NCBI GenBank assembly: GCA_030704615.1
Contig: CM060731.1
Span: forward strand, 79,236,001 to 79,300,000
Source: Takakia lepidozioides
Taxonomy: Eukaryota; Plantae; Bryophyta
Direction: 5' to 3'
Length of the DNA: 64,000 nt
Below the pieces are notes generated by a model. The model made no database searches and was not told where the DNA came from. It saw only the letters and a program-made list of their open reading frames with translations. The position numbers were made by a program, and so were the translations under genes. Below, piece by piece: positions 16,882-38,055 of this stretch. Within the stretch, counting starts at the first letter, position 1; every line of letters starts with the position of its first letter.

Positions 16882-18340
16882 ATGTCAGGGGTTGTGAGTT
16901 CAAGTTCTGGGGCGGGATCGTCTGGGGGGCGGAGGAAGAAAAAACGTACCCACGAGCGGGATAGCCAGGTCAACAAGCCAGACTACCCGGGACCGGATGC
17001 CTTGGATAGGGTGAAAGAAGTGGTAGCAGATTATTTCAAGGGTAGGGACTTGATGAGGCTGGAGAGTGCTTATGTTAGGCATGGATGGGAGGGGTTTCAG
17101 ATTTTTCAGCAAAATATGGAGAGGAAAATGACAAACGCTTTGGCGGGGGCTAAGTGGATGGCGGACAGGGACAAGCCGAAGTTCAATCGGTGGATCCAAA
17201 GCAGGGCGAAAGACGTCACGTGGAATTTGAGGCAGCTAATGAAGACATGGAAGGGCAGAACAACCGAGGGTCGAGTGCCCTCCGCCGAAGCTGAGTTAAT
17301 GCGGCGTGTTGAGTATTGGGCTTGCTCGGCAAGTCAAAATTCACATCGCCGGACTAGGGTTGTCTCTTGGAAGGCGGGGTCATCGGGCGGGGGAGGCACA
17401 ACTGGTCTTTATTACCTGAACAATAAAAAATGGGTTAGAGATTGGCCCTTACAAAGAATGAGGGTATGCTAAGGTCCGTCACTATAGGATTGTTGGTGAT
17501 TCTAGAATACCAGAGCGTTGGGAGCTAACGGAAAAAAAACCCAAGTCTAAAAATCCAGAAAATGCGTTGAGACAACATAACGACGAGTGTTTGGCAGTGA
17601 AGTTCCAGCATCCGGGTGTTATCTCGTATTTTGCTGTGAATGCACGTGAGGTAGAGGGTTACATTCGCTGGTGGAATGGGGGGACAATACGCGACATGAT
17701 GAACCTTGACAGAAAATGGGGCAACGATTCAGACAACGGGGTGGTTTTGGAACAAAGGGGAACGGAAGCAGAGTTCCAGGAATGCGATCGCTTGCTTCGT
17801 TTTCGGAAAGTGCGCAGTAAACTTGCATGGGCACTGGTGTGCGTCATGGATGTTGTCCACAAGAACGGTGTCATGCACAACGACTTGTCCCCCGACAACA
17901 TCTTGTTGCATTTTCCAGATGGCACCGAGGAGATCAAGATTGGGGTGTGTGATTGGGGCTTAGCCACCCCATTGGGCATACGCAAAGCCTCGCCGTACCA
18001 GTTTGAAAACCAAGACAAGCTGGACCGGGAACTCGCGAAAAGATGGTGGGTGGAAAAATATATTGCATCGGTTTTCAATGCAAATGTCACGCCCCACCCC
18101 CAGGACATGACGTCGGAGGCCTTTGTCGTTGGGAAGATAGCGGTACGAATAAATGGTGGCGCTCATTATGATCAAATTATGTTCCGGGATCAATTTACGG
18201 GAGGTTGTTGGCATTCAATGCTACAAAGGTTGTACGACAACAACAAGAATGAGATAGTCACATTAACACATGTAGTACTTCGGTTCATGGGCAAGCCATT
18301 CAATTGGCCTGAGCCGAAAGACGTATATAGGACGGAGTAG
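16882..18340 (+). pseudogene. Intronless protein kinase-like gene, frameshifted near 17460
   Basis: Catalytic loop HNDLSPDNILL, IGVCDWGLA (DFG equivalent), ECLAVKFQHPGVI and a GYAKVR lobe segment in a shifted frame between ORFs 16882-17472 and 17567-18340. Confidence 0.75.
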
Positions 18341-18562
18341 ACCATAGTCTCGTAGATATGAGATTTCTGGCGGTACAATGGTTCTTTTATGAAGACATAA
18401 CTCAATTTTGATCGTGCATGTAATAAATAAAGTCCCATTGTAAATATTACATTGCATATGCTCGACCCTGGCACCTGTCATCGCAACAAAAATGGTTTGT
18501 GTACTGGCTCACTGTTTATATTTGTAATGTTCCAAGGTTTCGGATATGGTTATGGGAAAACA

Positions 18563-19962
18563 ATATATTAGTTCCGTATGAGTTAGACAACAAACGTCTC
18601 ATCTCATTCAACTATGCGACACTACCATGAGAAGCATGGATCGGAAAGTAATAGGTGCACATGCGACCTCCGAACATTTGATACTAGGTCTCTACTTAAA
18701 CGTGTGGAGGTCGCATGTACACCTATTACTTTTTTATCCATGCCACTCATGGTAGTATCGCACAGTTGAATGAGATATGGAACATTTGTTGTCTAACTCC
18801 TATGGATCCAATATATCATTTTCTCAGTACCCTGTCAGAAACATTGAAAACATTCGCAGTTACAAACAGTGCCACAATACACGGCCGGTTTTGTTGAAAT
18901 GACATTTGTGAGGTTCGAGCGTATGCAATTTATTATTTACAACGGAATTTTATTTACTTGGGAGACCGGTACTGCTATTGGAGCGCAACTGATGGTGCGA
19001 GTTCTCTATTGATTGGAGCTGTCACAACCAATGTCAACAATCATATTTACGGTAAGGTGTTTCATGCTATTGTTGTTCCTCTAGTTGAATTCTGTAGTAC
19101 TCTTTTTGCTATTCCCATGCCAACATTCTCTGAGACTGTCATGTTCAAACAGACGTATCAGCCACCCCGGCCAGCTTGCAGGCTGCAGCCATGGCCCACC
19201 ATAAATTGAATGAATTGGAGATTTTGTGCGAAGTTCCTGGTTTCATGTCCGTGGTGGCTGATACGGAATTCGGAATATGGCAGTCGCAGTGGACCTGATG
19301 TTGTTGGCATGGGAGTAGCAAAACGATTCCTAAATAATTCTGCTACATGAACATCGGTAGTATGAAACACCTTGCAGTACATATGATTCTTGAGATTGTT
19401 TGCACGGATTATTTGTGTTTGTGCTTTCAAGTGGCGAACATTTCCACCATGGTGCGGAAGACGTGCATTGGCGACATTAAACGGTTGATGTGATATCATT
19501 TCACAAATGTATCACATCGCATTTGTGAAAATGTATCACATGAACCGTTCCATGTGGTCTACGGGAGTCTTCGATGGGTACGAGATCAATGTGGCCTACG
19601 AAATCTGCTTCCACCAACAAACATGTGATCATTTCAGAAGCGCTAGAACTTTGAAGCGACGATGGACAAGGTTCTTCATCCAGATGTTCAACATGTCGAG
19701 GTCTTCTGTAATGTCTCTTGCTTCGTAATGAAGTGCTTATCTAACTCTTATTTTTCCAATGCTAATATCTTCCATCTGGAACATATCCACACATGCATAT
19801 ATAACTTTAAAAAACAAATGCCAATCAAAACTGGAAGCTGGGGATGAAGCTTATAAAAGTTGAGATGGCCATTTATTTTTTTAAGGATTTTTGCACACAT
19901 ATGTGGATCTGTTCCAGGTGGAGAATATTAACATATTGGATAAAGTGGACATGGAGAAGCAC
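18563..19962. repeat. Three consecutive, mutually unrelated long imperfect inverted repeats (~18563-18816, ~18900-19510, ~19733-19962)
   Basis: Arm pairs read directly: GAGTTAGACAAC..GCGACCTCC / GGAGGTCGC..GTTGTCTAACTC; TCCCATGCCAACA..GTATCAGCCAC / GTGGCTGATAC..TGTTGGCATGGGA; CTGGAACATATCCACA / TGTGGATCTGTTCCAG. Confidence 0.8.
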
Positions 19963-20049
19963 CGCATTACAATGGGGAGACACTACAAAAAGAGCTTCAA
20001 ATGGCATACTATGTAACAGGTCCCAGTATAATCGAAGACGAAACCCCAT

Positions 20050-21295
20050 TCATTCAATAGGCGATTGAATGGTTGCCCATCCAAATGATTTTCGTTTGCT
20101 TTCAATATTTGCCACTATGTTCAACATACCATATATCAGGTCCCGGACTAATATCAGATCAATCGAAATTCATTCGATGGCTCAACGGATGGTTACCCAT
20201 CCAAATGATTTTCGTTCGCTTTGAAACTTGGCCAGTGTGTTCAATGTACCCTCTGATACGTCCCAGTGTAATATGAGATCAATCGAAAATCGTTCGATTG
20301 TCCAATGAGGCGTTCACTTGTCATCTGGTTTTTGTTCAATGCGAAAAAGAAATCCTGCAATGCGTGCACGGCTATTGCACCCATTGAACGGATGTGGTTG
20401 AAACCCCTCTTTTGCCCGCATGTATGCAACACATGTGCGGAGACACAACAGACGAATAAATCATTTGTCTCCCCGTCGACGCGATCCCCCCTCAAGCCAT
20501 TCCACAATTTAATTGAATTTAAATTTATTTTAAGCCAATGAATAGGTTTGCTCTGCCTTTCAGTGGGGGTTTCTGGCACGTATCGATCTTGTTTCTGGTT
20601 CAATTTTGTTCTGCGGCTTCCAGCATCCCACGGCTACTCCCCCGCCAAAATTTGGACCAATCAAAAATGCCCCAAAAAAAAAGTGTTCTCTTCGCTCACT
20701 ATTGCAGAACTCTCTATGAAGAGTACATGAAATAGAACACAAATCAAGTTTGGAGTACAAAACAGGGAAGAAAATGTGGTTTTGGGTCCAAATAAATTTT
20801 GATCGCTCCCAAATTTGGCACACACGTTGCATATAGGTACATTACACGCTCCATTCAAAAACGGAATAAAATAAAAATCGTGAGCACGCGAAACACAGTC
20901 CAACAGGTCGTAAAGCAATAGGAGCTCCAACATAATACATTCAACGGGTGAACGGATGGTTGCCCATCCAAAGCATTTTTGTTAGCTTCCAAACTTTGCC
21001 AGCACGTTCCAGACACCCTCTCACAGGTCCCGGACTAATATAAGCTCAATCGAAATTCATTCGATGGCTCAACGGATGGTTGGCCATCGAAATGATTTTG
21101 GTTCGCTTTGAGATGGCCACTATGTTCAATGTGCCATGTAAGAGGCCCCAGAGTAATATGAGATCAATCGAAATTTGTTCAATGGGCCAACGGATGGTTG
21201 CCCATCCAAATGATTTTCGTTCGCTTCGAAACTTGGCCAGTGTGTTCAATGTACCCTCTGATACGTCCCAGTGTAATATAAGATCAATCGAAATT
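20050..21295. repeat. ~120-bp tandem repeats in two blocks (~20050-20300 and ~20940-21295)
   Basis: GGTTGCCCATCCAAATGATTTTCG..GATCAATCGAAATT recurs at 20071, 20191, 20957, 21077 and 21195. Confidence 0.85.
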
Positions 21296-21401
21296 ATTTT
21301 GTGCTTTGAGAACTTTGTGGGTATGTTCGTAGAAAGATCATAGATTTTGCGAAATGATTATGAAATACGCAGGGACCAGGCGAAATTTGTTTGGGAGAGG
21401 A

Positions 21402-21710
21402 TGTCAAGTTATTTTACCACTAGTGTGAAGTTAGCTAGGAAATAGCTAGCTTTCATATATTGACATTTGGGATTGACCCAAGTGTCAATCCAGGGGCCAA
21501 TACATGTTTGGGCACCTGGCGTGGTTATCTTCACGGCAGATCGCGGTGGGCTCATCTTTCTTGAGTTGGCGTCTAGCTATGGCGCCGTAGTGTGGATTCC
21601 CCATGACGTGGGGTGCACTTGGCTCGACTTAATATATGAGTGATGTTTTTATGTGCAAGTATGTGAGTTTGAGAGAGCTTGTGTGCTTGTATCATTTCAT
21701 TTCCTTATCA
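21402..21710 (+). repeat. Terminal repeat A1
   Basis: Near-identical to 31464-31781 (about 8 substitutions and one 9-bp indel). Starts TGTC, ends TATCA. Confidence 0.95.
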
Positions 21711-21728
21711 CTCGAGAAAGATCAGCTC
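21711..21728 (+). promoter_or_regulatory. Putative self-priming primer-binding site
   Basis: CTCGAGAAAGATCAGCTC directly after A1 can pair at 17 of 18 positions (2 G:U) with 21548-21565 inside A1. No TGG-starting tRNA PBS is present. Confidence 0.6.
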
Positions 21729-23964
21729 GAGTCTGTGAGTGCCAAGTTAGTTGTAGCACTTGTGTTTTCAGATCATGAGAAGCGGTTCAGCCTAGAGTGC
21801 AGGGAGTCGTGCATGAGCCTATCCGAAGCGGATAGAGTGCAAAGGCGAACAGGTTGCAGGTTTGCCATGGATAGAGAGGCGGGTAGCCTATGTTGAAGAG
21901 CGGCGTTGCATAGCTCAACGCTATGGCAACCAAGTTTGGGCTTCTAGTGTGAAGCGGAGGAGATGTTGGCCACGAGTGGACGAACTGGTAGTCGTCTTCT
22001 TCAGCTGCAGGCTGAGTTAAGGAGCTGCAAAAATGTGGGCTGCGCATGGGAAACTAGCGTGTTGCAGGTTGGAGATGATATGATTTGTTTCAGGTATTTA
22101 TGCCCGAAACTAGTTGTTGCGGGTAGATGAGGAGCAGCCGAATGGTGGAGCTGCGAGGGGATGCATCGCAGCCCGTTGGGAGCTTTAGCTCCAAGCTCAT
22201 GAAGAGGTATGAGTGAAGAGAGGGGGCTGGTCCCTCTTGTGTGCAAATCAGTGCACTTGTGAAGCATGTGCTGAGTTGGAGTTTCAATCTGAAACTCAGC
22301 AGTGTAAGGGCTCTTGGAGTGGCGAGAGCGGGGCTGGAAAGGCAGCAACGAGGCGCCCTAGAGCCAGGGGATATGCATGAGAAGTGCAGGTGCACCAAGT
22401 TTGTAAAGGTGTGTATTTTCAGATTCGTTTTTGTGGGCTTCATGAAGAAATGGAGCTTATTGGGCAGCATAATGCTTGTTTGTTGAGTTTAGGGTGCCTC
22501 TGGTGGGTTGTGAGAGCCCAAGAGAGCATGGTAGCAGGTCTGGTGGCCTCGCAGAAGCCATAGCTCGTCGGCAACAGGTGCAGGAGCAAACCCCAGCTCG
22601 GGAACGCATGGGAACTCGTTGGGAGTTCCAGGGAACAGAGAATAGTGGCCGTGATGGGCCGTTGGGGTGGTATCACGAGATACCACGAGCCCAGGTCGTG
22701 ATGGTTGACCGTGACCGTTGACCGTGACCGTTGGAAGTCGTGGTGCGGACACAACGGGTGGGCACGGTGACCAGATCGTGGGGATGGCGGGCCGTGAAGG
22801 CTCGTGGGAGTGGTACCACGGGGTATCACGAGGCAGCCCGTGGCCAACGAGCGCCTAGGGCGGGCTGTGAGGAGTAGTGGCGGTTGGAGCCACGAAAGGC
22901 CGCGAACAGACAGAGTGAAAAAATAATAATAATAAATATTTTTAAAAAAAAACTTTTTTCACTCGTTTCGTGGGACCTTGATGGGGAGGCTGGGCTCTGT
23001 AGAACAACGGTTTTGAGCTAGCTGATCCGGCAGAAAAGTCGGAATTGCCTCCCTGTTGCGTTTTAACAAAGGGGATTACTCCCCTGCAGGTAATCTTTTC
23101 TGGTTTTCAGCCCAATTCTTAACTATGGGGGGAGACCAGCCTGCAGGTAATTCCTTTGGACAGAATGTTGTTGGGGCTTATATGTACCTCTATTTGCTCC
23201 ATTTTTGAACCTTCAGCGAATGGTGTGGTTTCCTGAGGTGGTTCCATTCGGAGGAATGGCTGGTGGACGTAAGGAGGCACTGGCGGACCCTGTGGAGGCT
23301 TGCATGGGGCCTTGGAGGCCAAGTTTCATGAGCTCGTGGAGGGGCGGTTTGAGAGTGTCTACAGGATGCTCTCATGGTCATGCAAGTGAGAGAAGAGAGG
23401 AAAAAAGAGGGTGTTGGGATGAGAGCGTGCTTGGGATAGGCATTGCTTCAGCTTCCCTTCCTCGTAGCTTTCCACCTTCTCTGTAGGCCGAGACTTTTCC
23501 GTAGGTGGAGGCAAGAGTCGGTCCGGGTTTGGGCTAGGTTGCAGGAGCGACATTGTGGAGAGATTTTTGGTGTGGGGCAGTTGTTGTTTTCATTCTTGTG
23601 TTTGGATCCCCTCCACACCTGCATGCTTGATTGTGCGCCATGCTAGTTTTGTGTGGGCGCTTGATTTTATAGGTGGTTGACTCGGGCTTGATCGCCGATC
23701 CAACCTAGAGCATGTGTCGATGGTGAGGCTGGGTTGATGACCAGTCAGACCATCTTTGTTTCTCCTGTGGTGAGGTTGGAGGTGATGACCAGCCAACCAT
23801 GGGAGTGCCTGCGGTGGATGCAGGTGCAGGTGCAGGTGCAGGCTAAGTTAGGAACCTAGTATTCCAAACCATAAGCCGCATCAGGTTCTCTACCCGGATA
23901 CCTTGTGGAGAAGGGGTTAGAGACATGTTCATAACCGGTTGAGTGTCAGTTTGTCAACACGGAG

Positions 23965-26524
23965 GTGCCACTAGTTGTTGGGGAAAGTGCCGGTACGAGC
24001 ACTAGCGATACTAGCGGGTATACGAGACGGGGTGTGCGGTTTAGGCCACCTTCACCTCATGTGTCTTCTACGGAAGGTTCTTATTCGGATTGTGCATCAG
24101 GAGAACTCACACCGGCAGTGCAAGTTGTTTCCTTGCCATTGTTGTGGGACACAATGGAGGAGATGTATGGAGCCACCAAGGGGCCACGTAGGTACTCTAG
24201 GGTGGTGGGCACCATTGAGTTGAATGATTTTATCGAAGAGTTTGATAGTTGGTGTGACTTGCAGCAAATGCGCAATCCACAACTGTTTACGCCTTTCATG
24301 GCATGGAAGGGGTTGTTTCAGCACCTTGAGGGGCCGCCCATGGATGATTACCATGAGTTTAGGCGGGGGCACGATGTTGAGATCGAGGAGTGGAGGATGT
24401 ACTGGTCACCCGACTATGTCTCCATCACTAGAGGCACTAGAGGCACAAGGGCAACAGCTACAATAGCAGCTTCCATGAGCAGTAGTGGGACGAGTGGTAC
24501 AGCAACTACGACGTCCACCCAAGCTACTGCTGCACCAGCACCAGTGGCGGTGCCTACTTTCAACCCTGTTGTGGAGTTCTTCGAAGAGTTGAGAAGGAAC
24601 TACCAAGGGGTGAGGACAGAGAAGTTGAGGAGCTTGCAAGAGTTCCAGAAGAAGCCTACTGAGAGCTTGAGGGAGGCTTTCACTCGCATGAGGCGCTTGA
24701 TTAATGTAACCCAAGGGGTTACGGAGGCTCAGGCAATCCAGTTCTGGTACGGGATATTGGACAAGGAGCTGAGGAGAAGGGTGCCGGATGCAACTCTCCT
24801 ACAAGCGGCCCAACCCACCTTAGCAAATGTGTTTTTGCTGGCGGAGCGGATAGAGCTCAACATGGTGGAGGAACGAGTGGTCATGGTGGGATTTGCTAAG
24901 GAGGCACCACGGGGTAGTGGTGCTCCTAGCCAACCACTACCTCAACGTGCTCAATGCAACAAGGGGGCTCAGGTGAAGCCCAGGGAAGGGCAGAGAGGAC
25001 CTCAGATGCAGGGGTCTCTCCCTTCATTTGCAAGCCAACAACGGGCGGATGTGGTGTGCTGGACATGTGGAGGACCCCATGTCAAGAAGGATTGCCCAGA
25101 GGGAGGCAATGGTTTGGCACCAGCACAGCCTGCACAGATGCAGTGTGGGCATTGTGGCAAGTACGGGCATGGAGAGGCCCAGTGCTATGGTTTGCACCCT
25201 GAGTTGCGCCCAGGCCGGTTCCAAGGGAATAATGGTGGCCGGGGCGAGGTGGAGCAGCCCAGAGAGGACGAGGTGGTCAGGCACGAGGTGCAGGCCAAGG
25301 GCAAGCTCAACATGGCCAAGGACGCGGAGGTCAGGGTGGTGACCAAGGCATGGCCAACCGGCTTCAGCAGCTAGAGCAGAGGCTCGCTGCCATAGCCACA
25401 GCTCAGGTGGTACCGGCTCCAAGGCCGGATGGTCCACCTCCTGCTCCTGAGGGAGGAGACATAGGAGGCATGGGATTCATGTGCGGGGCAGCACTACCAC
25501 TAGTGAGGGGTGCCACTACCATTACCACTATGGGTGGGGCAGCACTACCACTAGTGAGGGGTGTCACTACCACTACCACTGTGGGTGGGGCACCACTACC
25601 AGTAGTGTCGGGCAGCACTACCACTACCACTATGTGTGGGGCAGGACTACCACTAGTGCAAGTGGAGTCAGCTGTGGTAGTGACTCGAGGAGCAGCACGA
25701 GTTCCTGAGCCACGGGGTGTGGAGGTGGAGTTGGATTCACAGCGTGGGGAGGCAAGCCGTCAGGCCAGGCTTCCTCAGTCATTCACATTGGCGGAGACAG
25801 TGTCGACGCCGTCCATGGCACCTAGTTCTCGCCCGATTGTTACCGAGGCGGAGGTTAATATGTCATTGGGGGGAGCTACACGGGCAGCTCCACTACCTAG
25901 TGTTGCTAAGGCTACGGCAGCTAGTGTGCTGCTGGGGGTGGCCACAGCTGTGTATCAGGCTCCATTGTTCTCGGCTACCATGATTGCCTCACGGAGGCGG
26001 ATATGGAGCCGTGCCCTTTCCAGATACAGACATCTCTGGGAGGATCAGAGCAGGCTCGGGGCATGACACGACGTGAGTTGGCTATCCGATTACAGCCGGA
26101 TCATCCTACAGATGGCTCAGTGATGAGAGCCAAGGCCATTGTGACAGACGCAGTCTCGTACGATGTCCTTGTTGGTGGGGCAGTGTTGTACCCCATGGGC
26201 TTCACCCTAGATTTTTGGGAGGAATCAGCTTCCTATAGGCTTGGATGGCAGTCAGGGGAGGGCCAGCATGTGCAGCTCCCTGTGACGTTCATAGGAGGAG
26301 TTGCGGTTGCCCAGCGAGGCAAGATGCCAACACTGGCAGCATTCACAGCTGCAGTGACTTGGCCTGAAGAGTTGTTGGATGACAACACTCATTCAGAGGA
26401 TGTGTCACCTCCAAGAGAGCAGAATGACATGTATGGTATGGCAGAGTTGCCTACCATGGTTGCTCACACTCCATTGTGGGGTTCGAGCAAGGATTTGCAG
26501 CGGGTTACTGATTGTCGTGTGTAA
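23965..26524 (+). pseudogene. Gag (two CCHC zinc knuckles) plus linker and partial aspartic protease region, frameshifted
   Basis: CWTCGGPHVKKDC and CGHCGKYGHGEAQC knuckles, a retrotransposon-gag-like QKKPTESLREAF segment, and the protease-like tail YDVLVGGAVLYPMGFTLDF. No catalytic D(S/T)G motif was found. Confidence 0.8.
25481..25660 (+). repeat. 51-bp (17-aa) coding tandem repeat, ~3.4 copies
   Basis: GAALPLVRGATTITTMG-like units; GGGGCAGCACTACCAC at 25485 and 25536. Confidence 0.85.
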
Positions 26525-26596
26525 TAAGCCTGGGTAGAGGCTTTTGTACCAACAGGAGAGGAGGACAGTGCGGGGATTGCACCAGGACCACCTTAG

Positions 26597-27690
26597 TTGT
26601 CACCATTGGACACCACACCAATCATGTGGCAGTATCTGGATGAAGGCATTTGCTTTCTGGACTTGTTTGGCGGGATCAGCACCGGGTTGGCTGCTGTTCT
26701 ACAGGCAGGTGTACGAGTACGGCGTTACTTGTATGTGGAGAGGGATGAGACCGCACGATGTGTCTCACTCCGTCATGTTGCTCAGTTGGTGCAGCAGTAC
26801 CCTGAGTTGTTGCCGGTGTCTGCAGTTCGTGGATATCAACAGGACTTACCAGCAGACATCTCTTTGCTGGGGGCGCAAAATTTGGAGCGGGTTGGCTCCA
26901 TTGATTTGGTAGTGGCAGGTTGGCCCTGCCAAGGGCATTCATCAGCCGGGCATGGCAATGGATTGCGAGACTCGAGGTCGGGTCTGTTTTGGGAGATGGT
27001 GCGGGTTTTGCGCCACTTACAGCTTCATCAAGCTGTATCTCCAACATACATCTTGGAGAATGTGCCACTGATGGGCGATTCTCGGGCCAGGGTGATGGCC
27101 AGTGTGCTCAAGTCCGGTCGTGGCTTGGGTCAGCAGTATTGCTGGATGCAGCTGCGGTGGGGTCACGGGCTCATCGTCCACGGCTATGGTGGACTAACTT
27201 GATGCCCGCACTGCTCAAGCGTGCATTTGATAGGGTGCAGCGGCCAGTACACCTCACAGTTGATAGCATCTTGGACACGGGGAGGCAGTCTCAGGGTATG
27301 AGACACGATGACCGTCCGCCTTTGGCAGTGGTCAACAAGGTGGGTCGACCACAAGCAGCACTACCTACACTGCTCAGCTTCCCAGGATCGCATGCTTTCC
27401 GGGATAGTGGACCTGGCCTCCTGTGGGATGCTCAGTTGCAGCAGTTAGTGGAGCCTAATGCCAACGAGCGAGAGCGGGCTATGGGTTTTTCCACTGAGAC
27501 CACAGCGGTGCCTTCTCTTTCTGAGGCATCACGTCGTCAGGTGTCGGGGCAAGCAATGGATCTAAATTGCTTGACCTGGATTATCGGCTTGGCTATGGCT
27601 GAGCAACGTAGAATGCGGAGTGCACTTCCCTTGATGGTCTCTCTACCTACCGAGACGGTACAGGCAGTAAGTGGGGACCACGGGGTGTAG
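26597..27690 (+). pseudogene. C5-cytosine DNA methyltransferase (DNMT3-like) domain within the retroelement polyprotein; one frameshift near 27105
   Basis: Motif I LDLFGGISTG, IV DLVVAGWPCQG, GLFWEMVRVL, VI ENV, VIII AHRPRLWWTN, IX ERERAMGF and X RRQVSGQAM, in canonical order. Confidence 0.9.
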
Positions 27691-28029
27691 ATATCCATGG
27701 CACACGTGGGAGGTGCTTGAGGTTCAGAGGGAGTTGGCAGCCAAGGCGGCTGTGATGGATGAGGTTGGGGATTCTTCTCGGGTTGAGGAGGTCCTCAAGG
27801 ATGAGATGATGGGGCAGGATGAGGCCTTGTCATTGACTGAGCAGGCAGAGAGTACTGCTCAAGAGGTTGCGGCATAACAACCACGGGACGCGTCTCCTAC
27901 CTCTAAGTCTGCTGGACTTAAGGTTGTAGTTACGGAGGACAATTGGGAGCTTGACATTGGACCCATTATCACTGGAGGAGAGAGACGACGTATACGGCGG
28001 TTCCTGACAGGAATTGCTTTGCCTTCAGT

Positions 28030-28933
28030 TTGAAGGATTTAGGAGCACTGAAGGGTCAGGAGATTCGTATTGAGTTGGCCACGGACACGCCAATCTTTCA
28101 GAGACCCTATAGATACAGTGACATGGAGAGGTCTTTGATTCAGATGAGGACTCAAGATCTCTGGGAGGCTGGTTTGGTGGAGCTCTCTGGTGGAGAGTAT
28201 GCTACAGCCACGATGATGTTAGCCAAGAAGGATGTCTATGGCAATTGGACGGAGAGACGTATGTGCGGTGATTACCGGCCTGTAAATCGTCAGACCAAGT
28301 CCGATAAGTATGCCATGCCCACACCGGAGGAGATCTTTGATGCCATTGGGCATGCCAAGGTCTTTAGCACTTTGGACTTGCGGTCCGGATATCACCAGTT
28401 GCCGATCAAGGAGGCGAACAAACAGAAGACGACATTTTGGGGGATCAATGAGCACGGGAAGGATTGCCTATATCAGTGGCGGTTCTTGCCATTCGGGCTT
28501 AAGAACACTCCTGCAGAGTTCCAGAGAGTCATGGACAAGATTCTAGCAGAGGTGGACTTTGCTCGGTGCTACATAGATGACATCATCATCTTTAGTGCTA
28601 CGGTGGAGGAGCACGAGAGACACCTTCAGGTGGTGTTTGAGCGCTTGAAAACGCACGGATTGAAATTACATCGGGGAAAGTGCAAGTTCTTCCACAACCA
28701 GATTGAGTATCTGGGCCACATGATATATCCTAGAGGATTGGGGGTGTAGCAGACCAAGGTAGAGGCCATCGCACAGATTCCACGCCCCACGGATATGAGC
28801 TGAGTTTGAGCTTTCATGGGGTTGGCAAACTACTATAGACGGTTTTTCAAGGGATTTAGTGCTATTGCAAAGGCTCTAACCAAGCTAACCAAGGTAGATC
28901 AGGAGTGGCAGTGGGAAGATGAGCAAGAGCAAG
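28030..28933 (+). pseudogene. Reverse transcriptase (Ty3/Gypsy type)
   Basis: RMCGDYRPVN, FSTLDLRSGYHQ, LPFGLKN, YIDD and IEYLGH. The thumb region continues through in-frame stops to EQEQ at 28933. Confidence 0.95.
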
Positions 28934-30844
28934 GTACCACTGCAAGGGTGGGATCTATCCTCCCATCCACATGTGGAAGGTGACATGGCGCACGATTACG
29001 CACATGGTCCTTCCATACCATGCCATCTCGACCCTCCAGAATCAACACTCCTGAAGGCAACACCTCCCTGACCCTTAGAATCACACGTCCTACTGTGACA
29101 TCCAAGGTTGTGGGCGCTGTCTGCTGCAGATACACATAGTCCCCAGGGTGGAAACGCCAAACACCTGCCGATATCCCCTCCACGTATAGTGGCATACTCA
29201 ATGTGTCTCGGTGTTGGGCAATAGCAAGATTCTCAAAAGCCATAGGCATGACTCTCTTGAACAACTCTGCCCGCTGGGCACATGCTTGTGTCCACACATC
29301 CGGATTATCAAGGTTGAGGACTACTGCAACCTCCCTGCGAATAGACGCAGGCAAATCTGGCTCTCGGCCAAAGAGAAGGAAGTATGGTGAGAAGAAGACA
29401 AGTGATGCTTGTTTGCTAAACCTGTAGCCCATGGCTAGCCAAGGTACCTGAAGATCCCAATCTCCTAGGTGTCCCTTTTGCAAGCCATACTTGCGCAAAC
29501 CCCTCTTCACCGTCTGCACCACTCTCTTTGCCAAGCCATCGGCCTCAGGATGATCCCGAGATGTGGTACGGTGGTCTATCAAGGCTTTATCACACAAAGC
29601 CTGAAAACTCCCCAAGAACTCTCTCCCTTGGTCCGTGAGTACCTCAGCTGGAGCACCGAATCGGCTAAGCACACGATCCAGGAATGCATACGCAGCCCCC
29701 TCACTAGCCTTGTCAGGCAATGGAACCAACTCAATCCACTTGGAGAAGTGCTCCACCATTACCAACACATATCTGTGGTGGCGCATCGTCAATGGCAATG
29801 GCCCTGCGAAGTCAAGACTCCACCTTTAGCCTAATCCCACGATGGGTAAATGATGCAACTGTGGTGTAGGGCCGTTGAATGAAGCACGCACCCTGTCACA
29901 CACCATGCACCTAGCCACGAACTGTTGCACCTCTGTGTGCATACCACGCCACCAATACTGCCCCTGCAGTAAACTATGAGTGCGTCGCACTCCAAAATGC
30001 CCCAACTCCTCATGGGCATGCCGCACTAACCGTGCACGTTATGTTGGGTGAGGCACGATCCTCACCCGACCATCCTCCCACACGCGAAGCAGGTGTATCC
30101 CCTCCCACTTGAACCTCTTGGCTTGTTGCAGGATCCGATCTCTCTCTTTGGCAGTCACACTAGCTGCCGTGTCTCCAGTGCGGAGGTAGTCCAACACAAC
30201 CGAATCCTCATGTATATCTCTGGCACCATCTGGCTCATCACTAGCCTCAGGGTCCTCAGACACTCCGTCTATAATCATCCCTGTTGTAGGTCCAATCTGA
30301 CCTCCCGATGCCAAGATACACAAAAAGGCAGATGCATGTCATCCCGGCACCATCTCCTCGTCCGTCTCACCATGCCACCGAATTCCAGTGTTATCGTGTT
30401 GGCTTGTGCATGGATTGTGACTCAATCCATCCGCATCCCTATTGACCAAACCCGGTCGATGCACAACCTGAAAGTCATACTCCTGGAGTATAAGTGCCCA
30501 CCGTGCAAGCTTCCTTGTAAGCTTGTCTGACTCCATCAACCACTTGAGTGGCTGGTGATCCGTGATAAGGGTGAAGAGATTGCCGTATAGATAGCACCTG
30601 AAGTGTGCCACGGCCCACACTGCAGCTAAGCACTCCCCCTCATATGAGCTGTACTTAGACTCTGCAGCGTTGTTCGAGCGGCTAGCATAAGCCACTACGA
30701 ACTCTCTTCCCTCATCATCCACCTGTGTGAGCACCGCTCCAAGCCCTAGCATGCTCCAATCTGTATGCAGCTGAAAGGGACGCCCCCTGATAGGTCGTCT
30801 CAAGATGGGCGCCGAGGTCAACCTCGCCTTGAGCTCCTGAAAAG
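28934..30844 (-). pseudogene. RNase H plus DDE (rve) integrase, inverted relative to the rest of the element
   Basis: LHTDWS, YASRS, YEGECLA and TDHQPLKWL (RH); HEELGHFG..CMVC (HHCC zinc finger); LTDQGREF and EADGLAKR (rve core). Confidence 0.95.
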
Positions 30845-31002
30845 CTGCAGGGTTGCGTTGCATGCTATGTGGGCATGCTCGTGGTGCCGCCACTATGCTG
30901 GTGTGTGATTGATGCTCAAGAGGTTGGCACATGGGATGCTTGACACCACCTCTTGAGAGGGTTCCTGATGGAGATTGGTTATGTCCACACTGCTTGGGAT
31001 AG
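30845..31002 (+). pseudogene. PHD finger at the integrase C-terminus (one TGA, probably from CGA)
   Basis: Translation GLRCMLCGHARGAATMLVCD*CSRGWHMGCLTPPLERVPDGDWLCPHCLG* gives C4HC3 spacing with the conserved W. Confidence 0.9.
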
Positions 31003-31260
31003 TGACAGTGGATATGACTAGTGGCAGCTAACAAGACATGGGAGGCCAAGCTCATAGGAGTCAATACCCGAGATCTCAAGCTCAAGTTCACAGGTTGCAA
31101 GATGGCGACTAACGATGGGGCAACTCTTGTACCCGACCTCTTGATCTATCGAGTTTGAGTGTAGTAGGAATAGTGGTAGAGGACTTAGTGAGGCTATGGC
31201 CACTATCACATCTTGTGGCTACCTGGACTTAGAGGGACCTAAGCGCCAGCTAGGGGGGCG

Positions 31261-32133
31261 ATTGTGATGGACTAGTGGCTGCACTAGTGGTGGCTAGTGG
31301 CAGCCTAATGATGGACTAGTGGCTGCACTAGTGGTGACTAGTGGTTGTCTAGTGGCAGCCTAGTGGTGCTAGGCTAGTGATAGACTAGTGTTTGGTGTGC
31401 ACATGTGTTGTGTGATTTTGGACAGCGATGTAATTATGTAGCGATATGTATGCGCACGACAGCTGTCAAGTTATTTTACCACTAGTGTGAAGTTAGCTAG
31501 GAAATAGCTAACTTTCATATATTGACATTTGGGATTGACCCAAGTGTCAATCCAGGGGTCAATACATGTTTGGGCACCTGACGTGGTTATCTTCACGGCA
31601 GATCGCGGTGGGCTCATCTTTCTTGAGTTGAGCCTCACCGCGTCTAGCTATGGCACCGTAGCGTGGATTCCCCATGGCGTGGGGTGCACTTGGCTCGACT
31701 TAATATATGAGTGATGTTTTCATGTGCAAGTATGTGAGTTTGAGAGAGCTTGTGTGCTTGTATCATTTCCTTTCCTTATCATTGTGATGGACTAGTGGCA
31801 ACCTAGTGATGGACTAGTGGCTGCACTAGTGGTGGCTAGTGGCAGCCTAGTTGTTGGACTAGTGGCTCCACTAGTGGTGGCTAGTGGCAGCCTAGTGGTG
31901 GACTAGTGGCTCCACTAGTGATGGCTAGTGACAGACTAGTGGTTGGACTAGTGGTGGCTAGTGGCAACCTAGTGATGGACTAGTGGCTGCACTAGTGGTG
32001 ACTAGTGGTTGTCTAGTGGCAGCCTAGTGGTGCACTAGTGGTGGACTAGTGATAGACTAGTGTTTGGTGTGCACATGTGTTGTGTGATTTTGGACAACGA
32101 TGTAGTTGTGTAGCGATATGTATGCGCACGACA
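31261..32133 (+). repeat. B1 (31261-31461), A2 (31464-31781) and B2 (31781-32133) repeat block, preceded by a purine tract AGGGGGG at 31252-31258
   Basis: B1 and B2 both start ATTGTGATGGACTAGTGG and end GCGCACGACA. They differ mainly in the copy number of a CTAG-rich minisatellite. Confidence 0.9.
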
Positions 32134-32199
32134 AGGACCGTTCGTAACTCGTTATAACTTATTTGTTAACATCAATTTTCCTTGTTCTCCAGCTTTCGG

Positions 32200-33245
32200 A
32201 GTTCATTGCACATACCCATATACACGTCATGACCAAATTCGCACCTAATGCAAGTTAGCTGGTTGAGTGAAGCTTTGATAGTTTGGAGTGACTTTGACAT
32301 GATTCTGCCAATGTGACAATAGGAAAATATCAGAAGAAGTAACACGACGAGGAGAATTTGTGGAATGAATACTTTTCTGACCCCATTCAATGGTGGGACC
32401 ATCGATGCAAGAAGATGAATGTTTGTTGGATTATAGAGAGTAGCGATTGCAATGAGCGTAGAACTGTTGTTGATATGTTGAGTTGGGGGTGCTTCCTAGA
32501 ACAAGTCTCGGTTGTCATCGTCAACTGCTAGCAACAAGGCAAGGTTGTATGCATGATTCGTGCAAGGCATGGATAGCTGAAGGAACCAGGATAGAGTGTG
32601 GGTGCAGATTCACCCAAGAGGGCCGGATATCAAGCTCCAGATTAACTATGAAGCTACAAGAAACCTGCATAGGTAGATGGTCAACTGGCAGCAACGGCAC
32701 AATTGATAAAAATCAGACATGTTAATGAAGGCATCTTCTCAGCACATTTCACCCTATTTTTCCCTCTTATCAGAATCGGCCCAAAATTTCCATGTTGAAT
32801 CTGCAAGTTAGCTGGTTGAGTGAATCTAGTTTAGAGTGACTTTGACATGATACTGCTATGTGACAACAGGAAAGTATCAAAAAACAAGTAACAGACATGA
32901 GGAGAAGCTGTGGAATGAATACTTTTTTGCCCCCAATCAATGATGGGACAACCGAGGCAAAAAGGTGAATGCCTGTTACATTTCAGAGAGTAGCAGACGC
33001 AATTGAGCATAGGAACTAGTGTGATAAGCTGAGTTGGGTGTTTCCTAGAATAGATGTAGGTTGTCATTGTCGCTACTAGCAGCAAGGCAAGGATTGAATG
33101 CATGATTTGTGCAGGGGCATGATAGCTGAAGGAGCAAGGATAGAGTGTGGTCCAGATTCATCCTAGAGGGCCAAATTCAAGCACAAGATTACCTATGATT
33201 CCCTGTGGATCAATAACTACAAGAAACCTCCATGGGTAGATGGTC
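32200..33245 (+). repeat. ~555-bp tandem duplication, also present inside the CACTA at 35113-36000 (+) and 37270-37630 (-)
   Basis: AAGTTAGCTGGTTGAGTGAA..GAGTGACTTTGACATGAT at 32252, 32805 and 35457, and as the reverse complement at ~37290-37335. Confidence 0.8.
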
Positions 33246-36199
33246 TATTCCGTGGAACTCACTGAAGTCTTGCATTATGAGGATGAGAACTGCTTGGCAG
33301 CTTACTTGCATGAGGCCTTGACCCTTAGGCAATCCCCAGAGCAGTAGTAGCTTTTGGGCTGCTTTTTTACTTTGTGTTTTTCATTTGTCCCATAAGCTCT
33401 TTGAGCTTTCCGCAAATGTAATAAAGTACCATTTTTGTTTCATTTCATTTTGTTTCATGGCACGTCTTTCATCGTTTGTGCATTTCTAATGCATGATTAG
33501 TTCTCTTGTATGGCATTACTAGTCGACTCACTACAAACACCAAAACTCCAAAGCATGAATCACTATGAATGATTGTTCAAGTAATTTCGAGCACTTCATG
33601 TAAAGTAGTAAAGCAGTGGTTGCGCCAACTTCCGCAGTCGCAATTGTCACTAGGCATGTAGCACTGCAAGTTATGTGGTCTATTACCACGGGGCGCCCCG
33701 GGCCCGTGGCCACGTGGCAGCAGTGCTGCTTGTCGTGGCGCCACCACGTCGGCGTCCACATCGTCGTCCACGTCCGCGTCCATGTGTCACCGCGCTTCGG
33801 TGAGTCGGTCCACTCATCCGGAGGGAAAAGTCAAAGTCAGCCCAAAAGGTCAGACACACGGGCCGCCCGTTTGGTTACGCCACGTGGTTCTTCAGCATTA
33901 ATCGCATTAATCGTAGAGCAGTTGTTCGCGCGTCTGCGTCCTTTACCACTCCAATCATTGGATGTCCAACCCAACTACCACGTCTGTTGTAACTAGTTGT
34001 TTGTAACTTCCAGTCAATCCCAGTTTTTTGACTTTTACAATTCCAAATGAGTCGTTACCCCAGTGGTAAATGACACGAATGCTTCTAGTGTACTTTTTTT
34101 TAACACCAGCTGGATCTTAGTATTGATATATATATATACTTATTTATTTGCAGAAAGGGTTAGTAGCCCTTGAGAACTTTATTATAAGTTATTGTGGGGA
34201 AAAAAATTAAAACCCCGGATGAGTCATAAGGCACACACACTGCAAGCAGTGAAGAACGAACCCTTTCTCTCAGTACGAGAGAATGATCAGTGAAGAAGAT
34301 CTGTCTGCCCTAGGGCTGCAACTAAGGGTGAAGCCACTATGTCTGCAGGATTGCCTGACTATGAGAATTCAATAGCAGAGCCCTAAGCTATGCATAGTAA
34401 CCCAGTTTGCATTTTATGAATGGTAGAGAAGAACACCTCAGGAACTCGTTGCCCAAAAACTATCATTCAAAACATCATAGCAAAATAAGCAAGTTGGGAT
34501 CGTCTGATCCCTTCCAAACTGGATGCACCCTATGAGAACCGCGAACCTTGTTATCCCCTGGAAAGTGAAACAACCCTATCTGTACTGAAGCCTGGAAGCA
34601 GACGATGAGGGCCTAAGGTGCTTCCAGTTGATATCTCGATCGAACTCAGGAAACACTGTGCAGGGTCGAGCAATCACTACAACAGATTGCGGCTTTTACG
34701 ACTCTGTGCTATGACTACAAATGCAGTTATGAAAGCCATTTACGACTTCATGACTCTGCAGTCGTAGAACCCTAGTCAGTTATGGCATGGCAGATATGAC
34801 TCGCCAGCCTGGCTATGACATGGTGCCTGAGCAGCTGTGGGGGGTAGTCATACACGCTGGCTTTACTGAATGACTGAACGGGTCCATGTCAGCCGCTGTA
34901 TAAGAGAGACACGTGCTCTCTACAGAACACGCCACGTGTCAGACTGCGACACCATCCGACTGCAGAGGAGGGAATCAGACGCATGTGTCGCATCGTGATT
35001 TTGACACGTGGTTCCTCATGTCAATTGACACGCGTCGCTGGGGGGGGGGGTTGGGGATTTAATTTATTGTTATAATAATAATAATTATTATTATTATTAT
35101 TATTATTACTTTTGACCAACATTTTGGGTGTTTCCTAGAACAAATCTAGGCTGTCATTATCAGCTGCAAGGCAAGGAAGTATGCATGATTTGTGCAGAAG
35201 CAGTGATAGCTGAAAGAGCAGGGATAGAGTATGGGTCCAGATTCATCCACGAGGGCCAGATTTCAAGCACATGATTACCTATGATTACCTGTGGATTTAG
35301 CTATAAGAAACCTGCATGGGTAGATGGTGAACTGGAAGCCGCAGGAATAGCGGCACAATTGATAAAATCAAGCACTGCTAATAAAGGCACCTTCTTCAGC
35401 ACATTTCACCCTGTTTTTCCTTCTTATCAGAACCGGCCCTAAATTTCAATGTCTGCAAGTTAGCTAGTTGAGTGAATCTAGTTTGGAGTGACTTTGACAT
35501 GATATTGCCAATGTGACAACAGGAAAGTATCGAAAAACAGTTAACGGAGATGAGGGGAAGCTGTGGAATGAATACTTTTCTGACCCCAGGCAATGGTGGG
35601 ACAACCGAGGCAAAAAGGTAAATGCCTGTTGGATTACAGAGAGTAGCAGAGGCAATTGAGAATAGGAATTAGTGTGGTAAGTTGAGTTGGGTGTTTGCTG
35701 GAACAAATGTAGGCTGTCATTGTCAGCTGCTAACAGCAATGCAAGGATATATGCATGATCTGTGCAGAGGCATGGATAGCTGAAGGAGCAGGGATAGAGT
35801 GTGGGTCCAGATCATCCAAGAAAGCTGGATTTCAAGCTCCAGATTACCGATGATTCCCTGTGGAAGGATAGCTACAAGAAACCTGCATGGGTAGATGGTC
35901 ATGGGTAGATGGTAGATAGTTTGGAGTGATTTTGACATGATACTGCCAAAGTGACAATAAAAAAGTATCCATAAACAGGTAACAGTAGCAGACGCAATTC
36001 AGCATAAGCACTAAGGCAAACTCTCCTTCCCCGAAAGGGTGTGTTTTGGTATTTGAGCGAATAAATATTTTATCTAAGAATATAATTTCAAAAATTCGTT
36101 ATTTAATAATGTGCCACTGTCCACCATTCCACAACTTCTCCTCGTCTCTGTGACCTGTTTCTGGATACTTTTCTGTTGTCACATTGGCATCATGTCAAA

Positions 36200-37220
36200 G
36201 TTCAGATCGACATCTAGTACAATTCCAGCTTGGACGATGCTACCACGAACCTCTTTGCTATTTTGCAGGGCTGCCAGGCTTGCACACATGTTGCAAATGT
36301 AACAAACGCGATGTGGTTGCGCTGCAGTATCACTTCCCACACCACTTGCTCATAGACCTCTCCAAAGGGCCTCCATCATGCGCCGCTGTTGTGCATATCC
36401 TGGGATCATCATCCTCCATGCACCCCAATTCGGCATACAAGTCCACAAGGGCATAGTTCAGAACAACATTTGTTTAATTCCAGCTTGGACGATGTCATCA
36501 CAAACCCCGTCTTCACTCATTGCCTAGTCTAGTTAAGTGCAATTATGGGCTAGGCTGGTACCACATCTCATTCAGCCATATTATCAAAACAGCCATGTAT
36601 CCTTGTAGTTGCACCCCGCAACCTTGGCATACATGTCCACTACGGCAACGTTCAGAATCACATCAGATACAATACCAGCTTTGACAATATCACCGTGGAC
36701 CTCTGTACCCTTTTTCAGGGCTGCCAGGCGTGCATTTGACATACATATCCACCAAGGCAGTGTTTAGAGTGACATCTAGTGGTACAATTCCAGATTTGAT
36801 AATGGACCTTTGCATCCTTTCCAGGGCTACCAGGCTCGCATTTGACATACATGTACACCAGGGGAATGTTCAGAATGACATCAAGTACAATTCCAGCTTT
36901 GATGATGTCACCATGAACCTCTTGGCCCCTTCCCAGGGCTGCTAGGCTCGCATATGCATATTAACAAACACAAATGAACATGACCTGGTTTGGCTTCATT
37001 CTTTCCCACATCATTTGTTCTTAGGTTTCCAAAGCCTTACTCCCACACCTATGCTATACACACCTTACAATCATGGCAGTCCACAACACCACATCTCATT
37101 TAGCCATGTTGTCGAACTCTTCCTTTGCATCAGGCTTGCTGCACCCACATTTGGCATACATGTCCACTAGGGCAGTGGTCAGAATGACAACTAGTACAAT
37201 TTCAGCTTTGATGATGGCAC
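36200..37220 (-). pseudogene. Degenerate PLS-class PPR gene fragments inside the CACTA
   Basis: Minus-strand reading gives TALVDMYAKCG, FDNMAK*DVVLWTAMI, MKPNQVMF, VAVVDMYAK and YALVDLYA. Confidence 0.75.
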
Positions 37221-37922
37221 ATGGCCAAGAGATATCCCAATATCCCGCTACCAATGGGTTCAATGCATACTCTTGTCACATTGGCAGTATCATGTCAAAG
37301 TCACTCCAACTAGATTCACTCAACCAGCTAACTTGCAGAATTGAACATGAAAATTTAGGGCCGATTCTGATAAGAGGGGAAAATAGGGTGAAATGTGTTT
37401 CAGAAGGTGCCTTCATTAGCAGTGCTTGATTGTATCAATTGTGCTGCTGTTGCTGCGGCTTCCAATTGACCATCTACCCATGCAGGTTTCTTGTATCTAT
37501 CCTTCCACAGGGAATCATAGATAATCTGGAGCTTGAAATCTGGCCCTCTTCCACACTCTATCCCTGCTCCTTCAGCTATCTATGCCTCTGCACAAAATCA
37601 TGCATACAACAATCATTCCAGCAAACACCCCTAACCCTACTTATCAATGAGCAATGAGCTAACTTACATAATTCAATATGCATCTCAAGGCCGAGTCTGA
37701 TGAGAGGGCAAAACAGGCTGAAATAGGTCAAAGAAGAACCCATAGAGGATTTGACCGACCATCAACCCAAAATGACCTCTTGTGTGTGCTGCTTGTGTCT
37801 TGTAGTCAGGTAATGTCGGATTGGTCTGTGAGAACCAGCACGGTGCAGATGAGCAGGCAGAGATTGAAACACGGCCTGCTAAGACCAAGCTGACTCTCCC
37901 AAGAACCTTGAAACATCAGGAA

Positions 37923-38055
37923 AGCTGAGGTACTCACGGACCAAGGGAGAGAGTTCTTGGGGGAGTTTCAGGCTTTGTGTGATAAAGCCTTGATAGACCA
38001 CCGTACCACTTCTCAGGACCATCCTGAGGCCGATGGCTTGGCAGAGAGAGTGGTA
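37923..38055 (+). pseudogene. Captured integrase fragment of the retroelement family at 21402-32133
   Basis: GCTGAGGTACTCACGGACCAAGGGAGAGAG..GCCGATGGCTTGGC closely matches the reverse complement of ~29517-29650. Confidence 0.85.

Follow-up and report, generated by a model that had tools for sequence, protein, structure and literature searches.

The element at positions 21402-32133 of a 64,000-nucleotide stretch of Takakia lepidozioides (contig CM060731.1, positions 79,236,001 to 79,300,000; hereafter the window) is a retroelement that carries its direct repeats in the order A1-ORFs-B1-A2-B2 (ORF, open reading frame). Inserted copies begin with one half of a palindrome located inside the long terminal repeat (LTR) and finish with the other half, and on balance we favour an account in which the integrase cuts this palindrome in a two-LTR circle formed by end-joining.

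Repeats A1 (21402-21710) and A2 (31464-31781) differ by 8 mismatches in 309 positions and one 9-nt indel, and B1 (compared over 31263-31461) and B2 (31783-32133) by 6 mismatches in 199 aligned positions, B2 being longer by 152 bases of tandem repeat. The outer termini are TGTC on the left (21402) and GACA on the right (32133), with AGGA adjoining both, and GACA-GC-TGTC at the B1/A2 junction is the only GACA-NN-TGTC in the whole window. The layout, the termini, the AGGA duplication and the junction palindrome had been described in a first-pass annotation of the sequence and all are present. Taken alone, the palindrome of this copy is not beyond chance, because it is one of ten perfect 10-bp palindromes inside the element; its conservation among relatives is. 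The repeat architecture reads as follows (window positions, strand, feature):

21398..21401, + strand, target-site duplication AGGA, left copy, 4 bp; the empty-site contigs hold a single copy
21402..21710, + strand, repeat A1, with the left attachment end TGTCAAG at its start; many contigs start at 21402
21554..21565, + strand, predicted self-primer, complement of the primer-binding site (11/12 here)
21711..21722, + strand, primer-binding site, not tRNA-like, adjoining A1; pairing kept with different letters in three families
31252..31261, + strand, polypurine tract, directly before B1
31262..31461, + strand, repeat B1, including an 11/22/44-bp tandem array; CACGACA at the end of B1
31458..31467, no strand, palindrome GACA-GC-TGTC, the two attachment ends abutted with a 2-nt spacer
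31464..31781, + strand, repeat A2
31777..31786, + strand, A2-B2 joint, putative reverse-transcription-defined ends head to tail, blunt in this copy
31782..32133, + strand, repeat B2, with the right attachment end CACGACA at its end
32134..32137, + strand, target-site duplication AGGA, right copy

Relatives were taken as the best 80 of 562 loci from a metagenome scan. A or B could be placed in 57 of the 80, the remaining 23 being too short, without ends or from other families. Two families were distinguished, F1 with ~70% integrase identity to this copy and F2 with ~50-56%; three of the remaining 23, namely L003, L060 (=L062) and L076, carry the same junction. After removing 10 duplicates and adding the window copy, 25 elements had the long form (B1-A2 present) and 23 a short A-ORF-B form with a single B and then the end. 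None of 21 intact left ends carried B before A, the arrangement expected of normal B+A LTRs; this count omits L023 and L024 (A incomplete), L065 and L069 (rearranged) and L011, L028, L031, L032, L040, L064 and L071 (no A1 in range). Thus two full terminal LTRs as direct repeats are missing, and the ancestry of pol stays Ty3/Gypsy: TG...CA termini with a target duplication in the 4-6-bp range of Ty3/Gypsy, a DDE integrase of Ty3 type and a gag-pol with reverse transcriptase (RT), RNase H and integrase were all found.

The termini are conserved as TGTCA(T/A)G and CA(C/T)GACA between families in which integrase identity to this copy is 49-74%, as the first-pass annotation had anticipated from TGTCAAG and CACGACA. 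The junction spacer is 2 nt in 25/25 elements (GC 11, AC 7, GT 5, AT 1, AA 1), and all variants except AA are best read as transition decay of GC. B start and A end differ by family (GTTG/TTCA in F1, ATAC/CAAT in F2) and, because they are not conserved between families, are unlikely attachment sites. Since the internal CACGACA-GC-TGTCA is conserved and the ends of the unit are not, the attachment sites appear to sit inside the LTR. The earlier description of B+A as the conventional LTR holds in that the unit is bounded by the purine tract and the primer site, but its TG..CA ends are not conserved in the relatives.

Target duplications were scored on 19 complete elements, after dropping L061 (decayed ends) and L072 (contig end). 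At 4 bp the duplication was perfect in ten, matched at three of four positions in seven and was absent in two, so that the 4-bp rule expected from AGGA holds at 3/4 or better in 17 of 19. Perfect duplications at 3, 5 and 6 bp numbered 1, 0 and 0, and cross-pairs of flanks used as control gave 0/342 at 4 bp. Duplications were found in long and short forms alike. Two relatives (L015 8360-11337 and L058 9484-11759) are internally deleted and keep both ends and the duplication, possibly having been mobilised in trans. L065 (2752-3279 and 11283-11630; =L069) has a reversed A end from the TGTC terminus ~97 nt into A1 and a B2 of only ~14 nt, an arrangement of nested insertion or auto-integration.

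Further copies in the same organism point to the same ends. Five sequencing runs contain the stretch, four of them from one sample, to which X1, X2 and X4 belong, and their contigs were aligned to the left end (21350-21470) and to the right region (31000-32400). In X1 the summed contig depth rises ~36-fold from bin 21395-99 to bin 21400-04. Contigs with loose sequence ending just before 21402 number 23 in X1, 21 in X2 and 15 in X4, and agreement among these loose left flanks is low (0.38-0.48), meaning many different flanks. In X1, X2 and X4 there are also contigs that run from the left flank through a single AGGA to the right flank without the element, which is the empty site predicted beforehand; the flank being repetitive, these contigs may come from a paralogous locus. 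From the depth jump, the varied flanks and the single-AGGA contigs it follows that the family begins at TGTC and that AGGA was duplicated on insertion. The right end is less well tested: depth drops after 32127 and one contig joins a B end to another repeat. Contigs over 31000-32400 represent a deep family and, among the loose ends listed, no row falls at the four boundaries, so that right-region contigs neither support nor exclude normal LTR ends. The final ~45 nt of B (32081-32133) are deeper than the remaining B, and several contigs enter there; the terminal motif of this segment is common to family F1, which suggests an attachment sequence common to several families.

Anatomy of the reverse-transcribed unit is consistent with self-priming. 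The 12 nt that follow A1 pair with A at about position 150-165 in the window copy, F1 and F2, with letters that differ per family. In this copy 12/14 positions pair, and the best values are 14/14 for F1 and 13/14 for F2; at least 195 of 200 shuffles are beaten in 9 of 22 rows, the other rows being decayed or rearranged. The self-primer fold has a z of -4.06 for a region chosen by the analyst, and TATAAA lies ~30 nt upstream of the self-primer stretch in 5 of 8 relatives checked. The primer site reported earlier after A1 is thus a complement of part of A. Priming by a tRNA was rejected, as the site has no TGG at its start and pairs with A. This pairing and the upstream TATAAA point to self-priming of Tf1 type with an RNA that would start in the middle of A, and A1 likely holds promoter, transcription start and R-U5. 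B+GC+A can be taken as the unit bounded by purine tract and primer site, the tract being found at the same position in 56 relative loci (duplicates counted). With the primer site after A1 and the purine tract before B1, reverse transcription should give B-A-ORFs-B-A.

The two internal junctions behave very differently. Length changes affect the A2-B2 joint in 10 of 24 elements vs 0 of 25 at B1-A2 (Fisher p 0.0002), and leaving aside two 1-nt losses 8 of 24 are still changed (p 0.002). A2-B2 joints show microhomology deletions, filler and apparent leftovers of primer site or purine tract, and the joint looks newly end-joined. In F2, B1 and B2 are closer within elements (distance 0.094) than between them (0.127; permutation p 0.0002, n=13), and A1 and A2 are likewise nearer within elements (n=7). 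These shared variants, together with a variable A2-B2 joint and an exact B1-A2 junction, suggest that B2 is the B of the 5' LTR, which end-joining brings to the right-hand side anew in every cycle. Loss of a 15-nt unit in F2 was considered as a scar of cutting and rejected, since it is found in B1 in 4/13 and in B2 in 1/13, which fits slippage.

These data can be assembled in a life cycle of four steps. The RNA would start in the middle of A and, in the manner of Tf1, prime its own copying at the site that follows A1; here the complementarity is observed. Reverse transcription would then make a linear B-A-ORFs-B-A, as suggested by the anatomy and by the shared B1/B2 and A1/A2 variants. Both linear ends would be linked by end-joining into a two-LTR circle, leaving the ragged joint that is seen in the inserted copies, presumably by an end-joining agent. 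Finally, the integrase would make a 2-nt staggered cut, GACA^GC-TGTC, in the 5' LTR, giving two CA-3'OH ends, and these would be inserted with a 4-bp stagger; ends, spacer and duplication are observed. In the product A-ORFs-B-A-B the internal palindrome is intact and R is present on either side, so that a further round of replication could follow. The short A-ORF-B would arise from one-LTR circles or from DNA that was cut twice; having no 3' R, it would be a dead end. There are precedents for the cut, since integrase is reported to cleave the palindromes of abutted ends at 2-LTR junctions in foamy virus and HIV-1 (PMC1180852, PMC1905944, PMC4372172), and in IS2 minicircle junctions abutted ends are cut routinely (PMC3299598).

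The same ends, duplication and ragged joint are predicted by a route that inserts first and joins later, in which the integrase cleaves the palindrome of the 5' LTR while the DNA is still linear, and both new ends are inserted with no circle. The reverse-transcribed ends would then amount to a chromosomal break, repaired by end-joining to A-ORF-B-A-B or by single-strand annealing to A-ORF-B. Both forms (25 long, 23 short) would come from one event, and the filler DNA of L018 resembles host break repair. However, a chromosome break would be required at each insertion, and the complete absence of the mirror form is not predicted unless annealing always wins there; we regard this route as possible but unlikely.

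For Ngaro/PAT elements a templated splint model has been proposed. Applied here, the RNA would span A1 to B2 with B1-A2 as splint, B2 and the A2-B2 joint would be inherited, and a DDE integrase would replace the tyrosine recombinase. The layout equals that of Ngaro, PAT and VIPER (PMC6681497), these show a single arrangement, which fits the missing mirror form, and some B1/B2 pairs are discordant. But the conserved primer site complementary to mid-A implies an RNA start inside A, B1 and B2 form no separate classes, and the A2-B2 joint is hypervariable next to an exact B1-A2 junction, all of which makes such a route quite improbable. Still less can be said for a normal LTR element that was rearranged on a single occasion or misassembled, although this copy has a private inversion and no contig among those listed spans a whole examined stretch. 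The B1-A2 junction is found in 24 distinct relatives and A with no B at the left end in 20, further copies in the organism start at 21402, the empty site is seen and the layout is published for Klebsormidium. At the level of the lineage, junctions and duplications of the relatives and the copies in the same organism refute this reading, which can practically be set aside.

Joining the ends, cutting the palindrome of the 5' LTR and inserting is, in our somewhat cautious preference, the most economical path. Several observations weigh against it. All the evidence comes from integrated copies, and no circle was observed. A two-LTR circle has two identical palindromes, so that a mirror form A-B-A-ORF-B should appear; it was found at 0 of 21 left ends (p ~2e-4 if it made up one third of copies). 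The within-element test of B1/B2 does not reach significance in F1 (p 0.07, n=7). B1 and B2 are not always faithful twins either: one 15-nt repeat unit sets them apart in 5 of 13 F2 elements, and 152 bp of tandem repeat do so in this copy. L022 and L034 are complete and yet have no duplication. In addition, the relatives come from metagenome assemblies, in which collapsed repeats could make the short form look too common or leave the mirror form unseen, although B-A-B was assembled in more than 20 cases. The circle opened at the palindrome that was put forward in the first-pass annotation agrees with the palindrome-half ends, the fresh B2 of F2 and the end-joined appearance of the A2-B2 joint, and as proposed there left the missing mirror form and the short form unexplained. 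The asymmetry might arise if the 5' site is nearer a DNA end, or if a retained self-primer marks one end. Such a retained self-primer has reportedly been seen in Tf1.

The coding region contains several features that had not been annotated before, namely a methyltransferase, a PHD finger and an inversion of RNase H and integrase:

23935..25374, + strand, gag; Retrotrans_gag match under the curated cutoff, zinc-knuckle-like motifs by eye
25925..26524, + strand, likely protease region, conserved at the same place in relatives; a putative label, without Pfam match
26597..27690, + strand, C5 cytosine methyltransferase, Dnmt3-like, frameshifted (PF00145, E 2.5e-13)
27955..28932, + strand, RT and connection region, with stops (PF00078, E 2.4e-32)
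28933..30845, - strand, inverted block with RNase H (~30342-30845) and DDE integrase (core ~28962-29825) (PF17917, PF00665)
30846..31000, + strand, PHD finger at the integrase C-terminus, with a stop; read by eye, PF00628 on homologues, PHD structures matched by alignment

The best solved-structure match of the methyltransferase is DNMT3A (E 6e-7), its activity being only predicted and this copy frameshifted, and that of the integrase alignment is Ty3-G Gag-Pol (E 1.3e-22). No tyrosine recombinase was found in the 9 ORFs scanned, an rve integrase being present instead. As read in the assembled sequence, the clean inversion 28933-30845 is private to this copy: it is absent from 34 mapped relative loci, and the relatives have the pol order RT-RNase H-integrase. 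The integrase of this copy has lost one of three catalytic acidic residues, the triad being intact in most of 29 rows. With its stops, frameshifts, incomplete triad and inversion, this copy is dead. A 51-bp tandem array in gag-pol (25485-25658) looks by eye like the reverse complement of the B array.

Among named proteins the nearest come from a liverwort, Calypogeia fissa (integrase 80% and RT 74% identity), which by itself points to a bryophyte as the likely host. A scan of viral contigs found no relative. In the RT tree the window copy groups with Klebsormidium, Closterium, Marchantia and Calypogeia in a 38-row clade (99/97), the outgroups being unclassified hits. A deep split, with support weaker than 99/97, puts the window copy and F1 on one side and F2 on the other, and for this reason the split-repeat trait is likely old.

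The first-pass annotation knew of no Gypsy lineage of this kind, but the layout is stated in the legend of Fig. 4c of de Mendoza et al. 2018 (PMC5890265), where KnitGypsy-Dnmt3 of Klebsormidium nitens combines Gypsy domains with DIRS-type repeats. The likeness includes the Gypsy domain set, the Dnmt3-like methylase in pol, the DIRS-like layout and RT in one clade (99/97), although the identity of our Klebsormidium RT rows P0190 and P0197 with the published copies is not confirmed. Termini and duplication are not described in the accessible text of that paper, nor are a palindrome, a primer site, a short form or a mechanism. Streptophyte Gypsy-DNMT3 elements are also mentioned in one line of a preprint (bioRxiv 10.64898/2026.05.21.726589). 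The layout itself is thus not new, one drawing of it from an alga having been published; the present copy and its relatives add bryophyte-like hosts to its range. In the literature covered, to which Repbase, Dfam and subscription papers do not belong, we found no account of ends, duplication, palindrome, self-priming, LTR-internal attachment sites, ragged A2-B2 joint, short form or mechanism, and the element represents a modified LTR life cycle with an apparently undescribed mechanism.

Other systems share parts of this anatomy. Ngaro, PAT, VIPER and TATE have the A1-ORFs-B1-A2-B2 layout and are tyrosine-recombinase elements (PMC6681497), whereas the element here has a DDE integrase, CA ends and 4-bp duplications. 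Tf1/Sushi and Tcn1 share a primer site complementary to the LTR, not to a tRNA, and the RT-RNase H-integrase order, but are described as ordinary two-LTR elements (PMC6317226); here attachment sites are apparently LTR-internal, and a PHD finger and no chromodomain was seen. In foamy virus and HIV-1, as described in the papers cited above, integrase cuts the palindrome of abutted ends into processed ends as proposed here, but that palindrome is the joint of the reverse-transcribed ends and its cutting restores a normal provirus, while in our element it is a separate templated site inside the LTR whose cutting would permute the element. The circles of IS3, IS30, IS21 and IS256 also present abutted ends with a 1-2-bp spacer to a DDE enzyme (PMC3299598), but these are DNA transposons, in which the transposase builds the junction out of host DNA at the flanks, with no internal template.

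Transposons are plentiful in the plant DNA of the window. A 120-bp tandem array lies on one side of the element and a ~550-bp repeat family on the other (20005-21349 and 32249-37610), and the target site is itself repeated. A 132-bp integrase piece (37923-38054, - strand; equivalent to 29518-29649, 94.7% identical) lies inside another repeat and is possibly a captured fragment. At 17462-18340 there is a frame with a protein-kinase domain (PF00069, E 3.9e-8) beside long inverted repeats (18424-18956 and 19025-19402). LINE-type fragments (zf-RVT, RVT_1) and a CACTA-type block (Transposase_21, DUF4218, DUF4216) occupy 39338-40408, 53068-53580 and 56563-59151.

A broader proposal, a serious possibility if hardly yet a probable one, is that an old streptophyte Gypsy clade with attachment sites inside the LTR replicates only via end-joined circles, the two-LTR circle being obligatory and cutting restricted by rule to the 5' LTR. 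The two-LTR circle has long been regarded as a dead end and its productivity long argued. If the proposal is true, there would be a natural lineage in which integrase routinely acts on an internal palindrome and not on linear complementary DNA ends, and the productivity of two-LTR circles would become testable in a system that depends on them. LTR finders that require two terminal LTRs, the basis of REXdb (PMC6317226), would likely miss such elements, which are abundant in the runs of this organism. They would also offer a handle on the regeneration of split direct repeats, until now tied to tyrosine-recombinase elements.

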